Shown one piece after another: positions 22,809 through 45,948 of a stretch of 64,000 nucleotides of DNA. Origin of the DNA: Escherichia phage vB_EcoM_JS09; sequence record NC_024124.2; one strand, given 5' to 3'. The notes beneath the pieces were generated by a model. The model made no database searches. It was not told where the DNA came from and saw only the letters and a list, made by a program, of their open reading frames with translations. The translations under genes were made by a program, and so were the position numbers. How positions within the stretch are numbered: the stretch's first letter is position 1; the number at the start of each line of letters is the position of its first letter.

Positions 22809-22832
22809 TGTTACCTTTTTGCCTATGGTTTT

Positions 22833-25366: not shown

Positions 25367-26497
25367 ATGGCTTTTACAGTTGATATAACTCCTAAAACAC
25401 CTACTGGAGTTATAGATGAGACTAAGCAGTTTACTGCTACTCCCAGTGGTGAAACTGGAGGTGGAACTATTACATATGCTTGGACTGTAGATGATGTTCC
25501 ACAAGATGGAGCTGAAGCAACTTTTAGTTATGTACTAAAAGGACCTGCCGGTCAAAAGACTATTAAAGTAGTTGCAACAAATACAGTTCCAGAAGCTGAA
25601 GCTGAAACAGCAGAAGCTTCTACAACTATCACAGTTCAAAACAAGACACAAACGACTACCTTAGCTGTAACTCCCAATAGTCCTTCAGCCGGAGTAATTG
25701 GAACCCCAGTTCAATTTACTGCTGCCTTAGCTTCTCAACCGGTTGGAGCGTCTGCTACGTATCAGTGGTATGTAGATGATTCACAGGTTGGTGGAGAAAC
25801 TAACTCTACATTTAGCTATACTCCGACTACAAGTGGAGTAAAAAGAATTAAATGTGTAGCCCAAGTAACCGCGACAGATTATGATGCAAAGGAAGTTACT
25901 TCGAATGAAGTATCATTAACGGTTAATAAGAAGACAATGAATCCACAGATTACATTGACTCCTCCTTCTATTAATGTTCAACAAGATGCTTCGGCTACAT
26001 TTACTGCTAATGTTACTGGCGCACCTGCCGCAGCACAAATTACTTACTCGTGGAAGAAAGATTCTTCTCCTGTAGAAGGGTCAACTAATGTATATACTGT
26101 TGATACTTCATCTATTGGAAGTCAAACTATTGAAGTTACTGCAACTATTACTGCAACTGATTACGATAGCAAAACTATTACAGCAGAAGGTCAAGTTCAG
26201 GTAACTGATAAAGTTGCTCCAGAACCAGAAGGTGAACTACCTTATGTTCATCCTCTTCCACATCGTACTTCAGCTTACATCTGGTGCGGATGGTGGGTTA
26301 TGGATGAAATCCAAAAAATGGCCGAAGAAGGTAAAGATTGGAAAACTGAAGATCCAGATAGTAAGTACTACTTGCATCGTTACACACTTCAGAAGATGAT
26401 GAAAGACTATCCAGAAGTTGATGTTCAAGAATCACGTAATGGATACATCATCCATAAAACTGCTTTGGAAACTGGTATCATCTATACATATCCATAA
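25367..26497 (+). CDS. hoc: highly immunogenic outer capsid protein (Ig-like domains)
   Basis: 376 aa (T4 Hoc length); repeated Thr/Val-rich Ig-like segments. Confidence 0.9.
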   Translation: MAFTVDITPKTPTGVIDETKQFTATPSGETGGGTITYAWTVDDVPQDGAEATFSYVLKGPAGQKTIKVVATNTVPEAEAETAEASTTITVQNKTQTTTLAVTPNSPSAGVIGTPVQFTAALASQPVGASATYQWYVDDSQVGGETNSTFSYTPTTSGVKRIKCVAQVTATDYDAKEVTSNEVSLTVNKKTMNPQITLTPPSINVQQDASATFTANVTGAPAAAQITYSWKKDSSPVEGSTNVYTVDTSSIGSQTIEVTATITATDYDSKTITAEGQVQVTDKVAPEPEGELPYVHPLPHRTSAYIWCGWWVMDEIQKMAEEGKDWKTEDPDSKYYLHRYTLQKMMKDYPEVDVQESRNGYIIHKTALETGIIYTYP

Positions 26498-27160: not shown

Positions 27161-27880
27161 ATGTTTAAGAAATACAGCAGTCTTGAAAACCACTACAACT
27201 CTAAGTTTATTGAAAAACTCTACACTAATGGTTTGACTACCGGTGTTTGGGTAGCACGTGAGAAAATCCATGGGACCAACTTCTCGTTAATAATTGAACG
27301 TGACAACGTCACATGCGCCAAGCGCACAGGCCCTATTCTTCCAGCAGAAGATTTTTATGGTTATGAAATCGTACTCAAGAAGTATGATAAAGCTATTAAA
27401 GCCGTTCAGGAATTCATGTACACAGCTCGAGCCGTATCATATCAAGTATTCGGTGAATTCGCTGGTGGTGGAATCCAGAAAGGTGTTGACTACGGTGAAA
27501 AAGATTTTTACGTGTTCGATATCCTTATCAATACAGAAAGTGGTGATAATACATATTTGACCGATTACGAAATGCAAGATTTCTGTAATGAATTCGGTTT
27601 TAAAATGGCACCAATGCTCGGTCGTGGAACATTCGATGCTCTTATCACGATTCCAAACGACCTTGATTCTGTCTTAGCCGCTTATAATGCTACTGCGTCA
27701 GAAGATCTTGTAGAAGCAAATAATTGTGTATTTGACGCTAATGTTATTGGTGATAATACTGCCGAAGGTTATGTTCTGAAGCCTTGTTTCCCTAAATGGC
27801 TGCCAAACGGTACTCGTGTAGCTATTAAGTGCAAGAACTCTAAATTCAGTGAAAAGAAAAAGTCTGATAAAGCCTATTAA
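27161..27880 (+). pseudogene. rnlB: RNA ligase 2 (Rnl2), N-terminal fragment ended by frameshift
   Basis: 239 aa; near-identical to T4 Rnl2 N-terminus with KIHGTN motif; frame ends ...[10 protein letters not shown] where T4 continues PIKAK. Confidence 0.85.
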
Positions 27881-28160
27881 AACTCAGGTTCCATTAACCG
27901 AAATTGACAAAAACTTGCTTGATGTTCTAGCTTGTTATGTTACATTAAATCGTGTTAATAATGTGATTTCTAAGATTGGGACTGTAACGCCAAAAGATTT
28001 TGGCAAAGTGATGGGATTGACTGTTCAAGATATTCTGGAAGAAACTTCTCGTGAAGGTATTGTATTAACAACATCTGATAATCCGAATCTTGTTAAGAAA
28101 GAATTAGTCCGAATGGTGCAAGATGTTCTGCGTCCTGCATGGATTGAATTAGTATCATAA
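27849..28160 (+). pseudogene. rnlB: RNA ligase 2 (Rnl2), C-terminal fragment in the +1 frame
   Basis: Frame continues [16 protein letters not shown]...RPAWIELVS, matching T4 Rnl2 C-terminus; no ATG, ORF track starts on GTG. Confidence 0.8.
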
Positions 28161-29545: not shown

Positions 29546-29575
29546 AGACTTATCAACTACAGAGGAGTAAACAAA

Positions 29576-29845
29576 ATGACTAAAGCACGTTTCTTACGAG
29601 ATACTTTAAAAGTTCTAGAAGCTGAAGCAGTTAAGTTAGTAGAAAAATATGGTGCAAAAGTTAATGGTAATGCCTTCAACAAAGTATGGATGAAAGTTGA
29701 TTCTGAAGCTCGAGCTAAAGGTTATTGGGCCACTGATAAACTTGCATCATTCAAAAACAAAGACGGTTCTCTAGCATATGTCCAAGAAGGTATGCCTAAT
29801 TGGCAAAATATTTTGAAAACTTACATCGAAATTGCACAGAAATAA
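29576..29845 (+). CDS. hypothetical protein, + strand ORF between genes 24 and 23
   Basis: 89 aa ORF with own early promoter and strong RBS, converging on gene 23 terminator. Confidence 0.6.
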   Translation: MTKARFLRDTLKVLEAEAVKLVEKYGAKVNGNAFNKVWMKVDSEARAKGYWATDKLASFKNKDGSLAYVQEGMPNWQNILKTYIEIAQK

Positions 29846-41101: not shown

Positions 41102-41866
41102 TTAATTCATAAACCCATCGTCAAATGGTGAATTTTGTCTACCACGGTTGTTAACTACTACATACGGCTCAACGTATTCACTTGCCTCTGAATTGATTTG
41201 CTCAACTTCAGAATATTCATCGATATTAATGTCATGGATACCGTCAAGATTTCTAACAGGGTTAAGTTCCAAGTCACTAAATTCAGGTATATTGATACCT
41301 TCATTTTTCTGAAGCACCGGATTGATTTCTTCGCCAGAGTAAATAAACTTGCCTGCAGTAATTTTACGAATCGCATTTTTACCTACTTGATAGAATGGGT
41401 CATATGGTTCAACCCAGTTAATCTCAAACAAACTATTGTCCATTGGGAAGTATATTAAATCACCTTCCTTGGGCTCCTGATTGTTGACCTGGTGTTTGAA
41501 AAGACCCGGGTTAATAGATAATGTAACTTCGTCTTGAACTTGCATTCCGAAGTTGCTGAAGAAGGATTTCGCTCCTTCATAACCTTCAAAAGAGTTCAGA
41601 TATGCAGCAAATTTCCATGCTTTAGTAAATTTATTTTTAAGGTCCTCACCAAAGATAAGGTCCACGGCAACATATTCACGTGGAACATAAAAACATTCAA
41701 TACCGCGCATCTGTATGCTTTCTGCCACTAGAACATCGGCTAATGTCTGACTATTCTCATAATTATTAAAATTGACAAATGGATTGAGGATTTCAGTTTC
41801 ATTTGTCTGAGAATACCCACCACGATTTTCTAGTTTGGCGAAAAGATTTTTATCATAAGTTGTCAT
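41102..41866 (-). CDS. 14: neck protein
   Basis: 254 aa, T4 gp14 position. Confidence 0.9.
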
Positions 41867-42826: not shown

Positions 42827-44275
42827 TTAAGCTGTAGGAAGTTCAACCCATGCACCATCTTTGCGAACATAGAATTTACCGTCTGAAGGAGCATCTTCAA
42901 TATATCCAGCTTCCTTAAGAGTTTGGATTTCAGCTTCTGCAGCGGCCAAATCAGTTTCAAGAGTAGCAATTCTAGAAGTTAAACCATTAATTGTCGTATC
43001 ATGACTTTTAACTGTAGGCAATATACCACGTTCTTCAACAGTCGAACCATTTGGGTTGGTGCCATTTATAAGAGTATTTAATGTGTTTACAGAACCCTTA
43101 ATTCCTGTGCTATTAGTCCCAACATCAGTTTGAATGTTCTGAATGTCATTACTCAGCCCACTGATAGTTCCTTCAAGCTCTCGAGTACGATAAAGCAAAG
43201 AGCCGTCTGGTTCCGGTTTCCCGCCTGAAGCGTCAACACCGACTACGTTATTTAACCATGACACATTAAAACGCAATCCTGACGAAGAATCAGAGCCGAC
43301 AACAGTGTTCAATGCTCCGATAGCATCAGTATTGAGTTTAATACGTCCTTGGATTGTAGTAGGCAAATCATCAGCGCCAATGGCAGTTTCTACTGTAGTC
43401 AAACGAGGTTTAATACCACCTGATTGATTGAGCTCAAGATTAATGTCATTTATTGCTGAACTATTTGCATTAGTTGTAGTAATAATAGAAGTCGTATTAG
43501 GATACCCAATAGACTGTTTAATGCCGTCCAAGTCAGCATTTTGACGCGACAAAGTTAAATCAATACCGGAAAGACGACTAAACACTGGAGTAGTGAAAGA
43601 AGTGCGAGGCCCCATTTCTTCGCGCAAGTGTTCAACTTCAACAGTTAAAGAGCCGACGTCAGAATCAGCAAATTTAGTTTCCAAATCAGTTAATCGAACA
43701 CCGTGGTCAACAATTACGGAGCTATTAGTCATAATACGGCGTTTCATACCAGTGCTATCATTTCCTGGAGTAGGAACCCCATTAATATCTTGACCGGTAT
43801 ATTGTCCTAATTCATTTTTAATCCAAAGCAGGTCGTTACGAACCGTTCTATAAACTGAATCTGTTTCCTGATTATAAACACCAATATCGTCAGTATTCGC
43901 ATCAATATGTTCATTCAAATCATTCAATTCACTGGCATGGGTTTGAACTGTGACTTTAATGACATCGATATCTTGGGTGTTCTGGCCTATCTGTGCAAGA
44001 GCATCAACATCCCCAGAAACATCTAAAATACCTTGAATAGCTTTGATATCTTCATTGGCCGTATTCAAAGAAGATGCTATAGTTTTAATATTAACATCTA
44101 ACGCTTCTACGTTACGTTGAACTTCAACAATAGGACGGTTCATTACACCTTCAGAACCGTATTTTGTGTCAGCACCTGTTATTTCTTCATCGTTTTTAAT
44201 CCATTCAATACGACTCTGACCCGCGTCTGGTGGGCCGTCAACATATGGTAAATCTACCAGAGTTATATCAGTCAT
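42827..44275 (-). CDS. wac: fibritin (whisker antigen control, trimeric coiled coil)
   Basis: 482 aa, heptad-rich; T4 wac position between 12 and 13. Confidence 0.9.
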   Translation of the reverse strand: MTDITLVDLPYVDGPPDAGQSRIEWIKNDEEITGADTKYGSEGVMNRPIVEVQRNVEALDVNIKTIASSLNTANEDIKAIQGILDVSGDVDALAQIGQNTQDIDVIKVTVQTHASELNDLNEHIDANTDDIGVYNQETDSVYRTVRNDLLWIKNELGQYTGQDINGVPTPGNDSTGMKRRIMTNSSVIVDHGVRLTDLETKFADSDVGSLTVEVEHLREEMGPRTSFTTPVFSRLSGIDLTLSRQNADLDGIKQSIGYPNTTSIITTTNANSSAINDINLELNQSGGIKPRLTTVETAIGADDLPTTIQGRIKLNTDAIGALNTVVGSDSSSGLRFNVSWLNNVVGVDASGGKPEPDGSLLYRTRELEGTISGLSNDIQNIQTDVGTNSTGIKGSVNTLNTLINGTNPNGSTVEERGILPTVKSHDTTINGLTSRIATLETDLAAAEAEIQTLKEAGYIEDAPSDGKFYVRKDGAWVELPTA

Positions 44276-45948
44276 TATTTTACCTTAATGATATAGTTTA
44301 AAGAAATATTCCATGGGCGAGTTTCATTTCCAATTAATTCTGGACGATTCAGGGTATATTTAGAGTTACGCTGAGACGCTGGATCAATTTCATATCCATC
44401 GTTAGTAAAATACGAACGGTTATCTTCTGGACGATTCAGGGTATATTTAGAGTTACGCTGAGACGCTGGATCAATTTCATATCCATCGTTAGTAAAATAC
44501 GAACGGTTATCCCACCAGTCAAGTCCTTTACGAGTACCAACAAAGTTTGAACGACGAGTATTACCGAATGCTCCTGCATCGCCATGTTCACCAAAACCGC
44601 CAGCATGCTTATGATATGACATCTGTTGTTTTTGCACCTCACCAACATATCCACCGGTACAACCTACCGCCAGACGAGGCTTACCGAATTGGTCATTACC
44701 ATTAACATTAGGGTTAGTTAAATGGTTACCACGACCGGAGCCGCGAACAAATAATCCACGCATATCGGGCAAGCCTGGGTTAGAAGAACTACCACCATAT
44801 CGTGTCCCAATTCTGGAAGCATATACCGGACATTCTGAAGCAGAAACGGTCCCACCGTGACAGAAACGCCAGTCCGAACTCGGCAAACTATCTGCAGCCC
44901 ACATTGTAATAGCGCCAACTGGAAGAATTCGGTCTAATTCATTTTGAGTCACAATACGATTGCCTTGAATATAACCACCGGTCATATTGACATTACCCGT
45001 TATATTAGCACCACCAGAACCAACCGTCAACGTATTATTAATGCGAAGAGTGCCATTAATAGTTTGACCGCCTCGTTGGTGGATAACATCAGCATTCCAA
45101 GCAAGGGCAGAAGAACCATCACCACCTGATTGGCTACCCGCTTGTGTAGTTAAACGAACAACTCCACGTAAAGAAGTTGTAGCCCCACGCCCGTTTAATG
45201 TTGCGCCGGTCACTACAACTGAAGAGTTGTTACTATTTACTTCAGTCTGTGTCCCTAGTTTAACGACACCTTTATTAGTTTCTGATGCTACTGAATTCAT
45301 AAAGGTATAAGGTGAAATTGCATAGCCTTCACGCAGGGTGCCTTGTTGTGCTTGTGCAACTGTAGCTAAACGAACAACACCTGTAATAGATTCGGTGGCG
45401 TCACTATTATTTGGAGCAATTTGCGAAATAAGTTTAATTGCTAATTGTTGCGTTTTTAACGGAGTCATTGCCGTTGTATCGTCAGAACCAGCTAATGCCG
45501 CAGCAGAAGTTGAAATTTTAATTACACCATTTGTTGCTTCTGTTGATACTTTTGTCTGGAATACATTGTCTATTTTTTGATTCAATTTAAGCGGAGTAAT
45601 TGATGCATCGTCAATAGCTCCGGCTACTGCTTCATCTTCAGTAGCATAACGAGTTAAACCATATTGAGTTTCGGTTGCATTAGGATATTGTAGACGAGCA
45701 TTCAGTGATGCCGGAGTAACAGCTTTACTATTATCTAATCCATCAATAACTTCTTGTGGAGTGGCTATTTGAATAATTCCAGGTGTAGTAGTTGTTGCTT
45801 CCGGTACGCCATTAACACCTGAAGGAGAAATAGCAGCTAATGCGGCTTGGACATTAGTGACTGTATCTGGAAAATTCGACCCAGTAGGGTCGAATTCAAC
45901 GTAAATAGATTCATTTGAAACGTGTTGGTATGTATTGTTATTACTCAT
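44275..45948 (-). CDS. 12: short tail fiber protein, with internal 29-aa tandem duplication near C-terminus
   Basis: 557 aa versus about 527 in T4; C-terminus matches T4 gp12 but segment [29 protein letters not shown] occurs twice. Confidence 0.9.
44338..44511 (-). repeat. perfect 87-bp tandem direct repeat (2.0 copies), in frame within gene 12
   Basis: 44338-44424 and 44425-44511 identical base for base; flanking bases differ so exactly two copies. Confidence 0.95.

Follow-up and report, generated by a model that had tools for sequence, protein, structure and literature searches.

The gp12 short tail fibre gene in the deposited genome of Escherichia phage vB_EcoM_JS09 is longer than that of its relatives by a net 90-bp insertion, which is made up of a perfect in-frame 87-bp repeat and one adjoining extra codon. 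We think it probable, with moderate confidence, that this insertion is a finishing or assembly artefact in the JS09 GenBank/RefSeq record (KF582788 / NC_024124) rather than a feature of the phage. It was found in a 64,000-nucleotide stretch of that genome (record NC_024124.2), which is referred to here as the window; the relevant features are collected in Table 1.

Table 1. Features of the gp12/wac locus of phage JS09, in window coordinates
Feature	Position	Strand	Remarks
gp12 short tail fibre gene, 557 aa	44275-45948	-	identical to AIA79960.2 / YP_009037335.2, Escherichia phage vB_EcoM_JS09
87-bp repeat copy, first in protein	44425-44511	-	aa 480-508; 100% identical to 44338-44424
87-bp repeat copy, second in protein	44338-44424	-	aa 509-537; then native 20-aa C-terminus
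CCACCA, two Trp codons (W478-W479)	44512-44517	-	single CCA in every independently assembled relative
90-bp net insertion	44425-44514	.	only possible single-insertion description; string decomposition against single-copy DCP548
H446-K-H448, conserved His pair	44605-44613	-	axial zinc ligands in T4 gp12 (His445/His447)
D456G, private substitution	44582	-	A-to-G in gene sense; loop just after the zinc-binding HKH motif
wac (fibritin), neighbour of gp12	42827-44275	-	accession version.2

The gene had been read as a gp12 short tail fibre orthologue in the original prediction, and several lines of evidence agree with this. Its product matches the Pfam domains S_tail_recep_bd, gp12-short_mid and Collar (PF14928, PF09089 and PF07484, with 243.7, 133.7 and 52.6 bits, respectively), and PF14928 matches in two stretches because of the repeat. 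T4 gp12 (5iv5_O, 527 aa) aligns with it over the full length (E = 2.9e-290), and the baseplate and neck genes stand in the order gp10-gp11-gp12-wac-gp13, as judged from the window's open reading frames and from how colinear relatives are annotated. In an alignment of 27 sequences H446 and H448 do not vary, and the corresponding His445 and His447 of T4 gp12 coordinate zinc (PMC3004832). By its domains, zinc motif and synteny, then, the gene belongs to the T4-type gp12 family. The head of gp12 is a knitted, zinc-binding trimer that packs under the baseplate against neighbouring proteins (PMC3004832). An AlphaFold2 monomer of aa 330-557 had a pLDDT below 50 across the whole head (model residues 118-190), and because it left the head unmodelled we draw no structural inference from it on how well the head would tolerate the repeat. 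Besides the insertion, D456G is the sole gp12 residue private to JS09; it sits in a conserved GEHDD stretch where D is found in 16/16 other cluster members examined and in T4, and the adjacent positions 455 and 458 vary naturally among relatives.

The original prediction held that two abutting 87-bp segments are identical, and direct reading bears this out base for base. A repeat search gives 2 copies of 87 nt with 100% identity, and TRF reports a period of 87, 2.0 copies, 100% matches and a score of 348. Both copies encode the same 29-aa segment, and 20 codons separate the repeat from the gp12 stop. There is no other exact direct repeat of at least 20 bp anywhere in the 64-kb window, and a chance origin of this one is thus excluded. 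At the copy-copy junction the JS09 sequence reads GAACGGTTATC followed directly by TTCTGGACGATT. The alignment of gp12 with its relatives also shows an extra Trp codon (TGG; CCA on the plus strand, 44512-44514) that abuts the repeat just upstream in the gene sense, and this 3-bp insertion is private to the window in comparison with pEK20, F2, DCP548, JQD51 and MRostami-2023e. Because the extra CCA adjoins the repeat, the net difference from relatives is 90 bp and not 87 bp.

The form of this 90-bp difference is unusual. Decomposition against the single-copy sequence of DCP548 allows only one single-insertion description, ancestral[:p] + ancestral[p-87:p+3] + ancestral[p:] with p = 44424; the 90-mer inserted after 44424 reproduces without change the ancestral bases on either side of the insertion point, 87 on the left and 3 on the right. 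It equals neither ancestral[p-90:p] nor ancestral[p:p+90], the forms of a canonical tandem duplication, and the exact string decomposition rules out a single canonical tandem duplication of 90 bp or of 87 bp. The original prediction of an 87-bp tandem duplication therefore stands in that the copies are perfect and in frame, and needs amending in that the event is not a clean one. No microhomology (0 bp) exists at the repeat-unit boundaries or at the copy-copy junction: the unit ends in C and is preceded by A, and it begins with T and is followed by C. To arise biologically, a structure of this kind needs either a pair of template switches or two duplications side by side, one of 87 bp and one of 3 bp. 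The 87-bp and 3-bp pieces are both in frame and codon-aligned, the reading frame is intact to the native C-terminus, and the repeat lies within the receptor-binding region.

Among 143 phage records that match the gene region, nearly all align in two pieces and span 2111 bp, as against 2201 bp in the window; only MRostami-2023e (OQ031495) and TU01 (MZ560701) align in one piece. These two are also the only phage records that match the copy-copy junction contiguously, and the extra CCA is shared only by TU01 among 358 phage records that cover the same 81 bp. The closest relatives (DCP548, pEK20, AV110, SSE1 and others) are 99.3-99.7% identical to JS09 in DNA here, and they are single-copy with a gp12 of 527 aa; at the protein level the sibling gp12 is JS09 gp12 minus D456G and the 30 extra residues. 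Comparison of gp12 length in close relatives had been proposed as a check, and every independently assembled one proves to be single-copy at 527 aa. T4 gp12, credited in the original prediction with one copy, does have one, and its residues 478-506 align to both window copies (5iv5_O). The repeat is thus confined to a single primary record, and genomes that are almost identical but were assembled independently do not have it. A degenerate 32-nt pattern for the junction had 0 matches in IMG/VR and 0 in metagenome contigs, and these nulls are weak because a wild-type control pattern found only 6 and 5 loci there, respectively. Exact-protein look-ups returned no record of hypothetical single-copy forms of JS09 or TU01 gp12, and no independent contigs with a 556- or 557-aa gp12 beyond the GenBank records themselves. 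The literature searched contains no mention of the JS09 gp12 repeat.

The insertion also falls in a segment of nearly constant length. From the FTNDG motif to the C-terminus there are 36-46 aa in 73 of 76 gp12-family proteins, and 73 aa only in JS09, TU01 and MRostami-2023e, so that the window gp12 departs from the length conservation of the family's head segment. In our alignment of 26 diverse gp12 homologues, which are 507-546 aa long with identities of 42-98%, a single 2-aa indel (EIDPASQ vs EL--GGH) is all that interrupts the stretch between the D-W/D-N motif and the C-terminus. The head segment holds many invariant residues, and the extra Trp falls between a near-invariant W and the invariant D-N.

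The history of the record bears on the same locus. Among ten JS09 proteins checked, only gp12 (AIA79960.2) and the adjoining wac (AIA79959.2) carry version.2; gp13, gp11, gp10, gp23, gp24 and the RNA-ligase fragment are among those at version 1. Because only those two proteins are at version.2, the deposited JS09 sequence has been revised at the gp12/wac locus. We also note that the RefSeq number of wac, YP_009037598, is out of series with those of its neighbours (gp12 335, gp10 337), and the version and numbering pattern together suggests a later re-annotation or edit of the locus. Such a revision cuts both ways, as it could reflect targeted re-sequencing, which would count towards a real repeat, or equally a manual patch, which would count towards an artefact. 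The private SNVs of wac (3 synonymous and 2 non-synonymous) look like natural variation when judged by the kind of change, and with 194 private SNVs in 50 kb, a single one close to the repeat carries no significance.

Elsewhere in the window the record differs from its relatives in several further ways. A private 1-bp insertion near 27869 (in the region 27161-28160) gives GATAAAGC where all relatives have GATAAGC, and it splits RNA ligase 2 into open reading frames of 239 aa and 103 aa, while the gene is intact at 332 aa in pEK20; the split is inherited by TU01 and not by MRostami-2023e, and it is either a real pseudogene or a JS09 sequencing error. Two private 1-bp deletions, at 22815 and 22828, lie in intergenic T-runs when compared with four de novo relatives, and these homopolymer-type differences suggest some base-calling error in the JS09 record. 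The polynucleotide kinase gene has clustered private substitutions at its 3′ end, at 2584-2591 (GTCGCATTCGGT vs GTTAACCATGGT in all relatives), which change the end of the protein from QVNHGDF to QVAFGDF before the stop codon, and TU01 is a hybrid of both versions. The Hoc-like head decoration gene (25367-26497) has a length of 1131 bp here, of 843 bp in F2 and JQD51, and of 1419 bp in pEK20 and DCP548; each step of 288 bp (96 aa) corresponds to roughly one Ig-like module. Unlike the perfect gp12 repeat, this is natural variation in copy number, in frame and between copies that have diverged. Finally, F2 and JQD51 have extra genes that are absent from the window at about 29570-29840 and 41830-41860, namely segD, which lies between gp24 and gp23, and a putative endonuclease, which lies between the neck genes gp14 and gp13.

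How, then, should the repeat be explained? The three GenBank records that contain it come from China, Nepal and Iran, and taken at face value they would make it a real allele, inherited or horizontally transferred, that is common to a small natural clade (JS09, TU01 and MRostami-2023e). We regard this as very improbable and as largely refuted already by the nature of the two later records. TU01, a "partial genome", is perfectly colinear with the window, its coordinates shifted by exactly 32,000, and has 861 mismatches and 0 gap openings in about 50 kb, whereas over the same stretch four similarly divergent Mosigviruses assembled de novo have 29-53 gap openings as well as large indels. The Ns of TU01 are single bases, 51% of which are at sites that vary among relatives (vs 4% background), and one N recurs at an identical offset in the two repeat copies. 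TU01 gp12 differs from that of JS09 at many sites, and so is more divergent than the gp12 of single-copy phages, yet both insertions are present; DCP548 gp12 differs from JS09 by three substitutions, yet it has neither. According to its paper (PMC9117343), TU01 was assembled de novo with CLC and has its closest relative in JS09, at 98.04%; the record itself behaves as would a consensus on JS09 that admits substitutions only. MRostami-2023e carries an UNVERIFIED flag, has only small indels and contains N-runs of exactly the window's length; it "corrects" the 3-bp insertion and keeps the 87-bp repeat, a pattern that is the behaviour of a small-indel caller on reads from a single-copy phage. Peculiarities of JS09 recur in both (the gp12 repeat and the length of Hoc) and, in TU01, the RNA-ligase frameshift as well. 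The look-ups above, which gave neither an alternative TU01 form nor an independent contig with the longer protein, likewise speak against a shared allele. From their sequences, the two records behave as consensus sequences mapped onto JS09, and this rules them out as independent confirmation; because both derive from the JS09 reference, they neither support nor refute the repeat in JS09 itself.

This leaves a very recent event and an assembly artefact, which the original prediction had rightly named as the pair of alternatives. If the change is real, it arose very recently in the JS09 lineage as an in-frame tandem duplication of 87 bp (T4 residues 478-506) together with a triplication-type slip of the Trp codon, either in two events or in a single complex error of replication that involved two template switches. 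The trimeric head would then use one full repeat set, with about 30 aa per chain looped out, and the contact of the fibre tip with the LPS core would possibly be altered. We consider such an origin possible, though doubtful. It accords with the codon-aligned pieces and the open frame to the native C-terminus, with precedents in the receptor-binding regions of other fibres, and with the record revision if that was targeted re-sequencing. A tandem repeat can moreover be viewed as an insertion at any register, and the surplus could by this argument extrude at the indel-tolerant loop (EIDPASQ vs EL--GGH). D456G, private to JS09 and flanked by the variable positions 455 and 458, is in the same domain, and JS09 is infectious and uses LPS (PMC8546717). 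On the other hand, two adjacent events would be required with no microhomology at the junction, the repeat occurs in no independent genome, viral contig or metagenome contig among those searched, and natural homologues have no comparable length change in the head segment. The extra Trp would be placed between two strongly conserved positions, in a head that is packed under the baseplate against other proteins (PMC3004832). The stability of the repeat also has to be considered. In a T4-type phage, a perfect 87-bp direct repeat should be lost by homologous recombination unless it is selected. It seems to us unlikely that JS09 truly makes a 557-aa gp12 that arose by a complex two-switch duplication and whose knitted, zinc-binding receptor head finds room for 30 additional residues in each chain.

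An artefact would start from a true single-copy gp12 gene. A 90-nt fragment that spans one point in it, with 87 nt to the left and 3 nt to the right, would have been pasted whole between stretches that already abutted, and this single step would yield both anomalies, the perfect 87-bp repeat and the adjoining extra CCA. Typically this would happen when a read or patch that spans a junction is used to close or re-circularise a contig of a circularly permuted T4-like genome; the 90-mer might be a 90-nt Illumina read, which is speculation on our part. The error would then have spread to the later records TU01 and MRostami-2023e, which, because they appear to have been built as consensus sequences on JS09 coordinates, were unable to represent an 87-bp deletion. 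An untrimmed de Bruijn contig overlap at a CCA/CCACCA bubble was considered and rejected, as it would give L-U-CCA-U-CCA, which is not observed, and an untrimmed overlap of 87 bp would also require an even k of 88. We infer an in-silico origin, and this particular pasting step, from the structure of the insertion.

The non-canonical structure, obtainable in one event, the lack of microhomology, the single primary record, the length conservation of the segment, the private indels and the edit of the locus all incline us, on balance, to an artefact as the likelier origin. Some points count against it. The in-frame, codon-aligned pieces are what would be demanded of a real mutation in an essential gene, and a pasted fragment would be in frame only by chance (about 1 in 3 for a 90-bp total) unless it was a 90-nt read. 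The gp12/wac revision could equally stem from re-sequencing by the authors, for example while cloning gp12, that confirmed the repeat, and D456G might be a trace of selection acting on the receptor-binding head. A functional 557-aa gp12 would also be compatible with the viability of JS09 and its efficient adsorption to LPS (PMC8546717).

The outcome matters in either case. If the repeat is an artefact, this is a matter of data hygiene. The JS09 genome is a RefSeq entry and serves as exemplar for the species Mosigvirus JS09, and its aberrant gp12, which has already passed into UniRef and two more GenBank records, would lead astray any work on receptor-binding proteins or the prediction of host range. 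The case shows that reference-guided "assemblies" can pass for independent confirmation. A real repeat would mean that the gp12 head, tightly knitted as it is, can take up 30 additional residues, and this would be the first large insertion known in a segment that is otherwise length-conserved within about 10 residues across the family. It would then provide a natural handle on the reading of the LPS core by short tail fibres, and a 557-aa gp12 might add to the broad ETEC/APEC host range of JS09 via altered LPS-core recognition.

T4 gp12 (PDB 1OCY, 1PDI and 5IV5; 527 aa) has the same three Pfam domains, H-x-H motif and gene order as the window gp12. The window genome is Mosigvirus JS09 and not T4, and its protein is 30 aa longer, with T4 residues 478-506 present twice and an extra Trp after W477. 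The gp12 proteins of the sibling Mosigviruses DCP548, pEK20, AV110 and SSE1 have neither the 87-bp repeat nor the extra CCA. Host-range adaptation through in-frame tandem duplications in fibre genes has been documented in phages (PMC6365445 and PMC6957217); the examples are the host-range duplications of the T4 long-tail-fibre adhesin gp37 (Tetart et al. 1996, as cited in PMC6957217) and the 1.8-kb tandem duplications in the tail fibre of EfV12-phi1 (PMC6365445). Like that of JS09, these are in-frame tandem duplications inside or beside the receptor-binding part of a fibre. They were, however, obtained under selection, recurrent in independent lines and confirmed by PCR or long reads, whereas the JS09 repeat comes from one record, is known from the deposited sequence alone, has a non-canonical structure and concerns a different gene (gp12) and fold. 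As in artefacts of joining, gap closure or circularisation, the repeat is perfect, confined to a single primary record and missing from de novo assemblies that are otherwise nearly identical, and as in propagated artefacts it is present in reference-colinear records; the record, too, was revised at the locus. The usual join artefact is a simple untrimmed overlap, and the JS09 insert differs from it in being a junction-spanning 90-mer that would have needed a pasting step. We judge the JS09 gp12 repeat to be most likely not biological.
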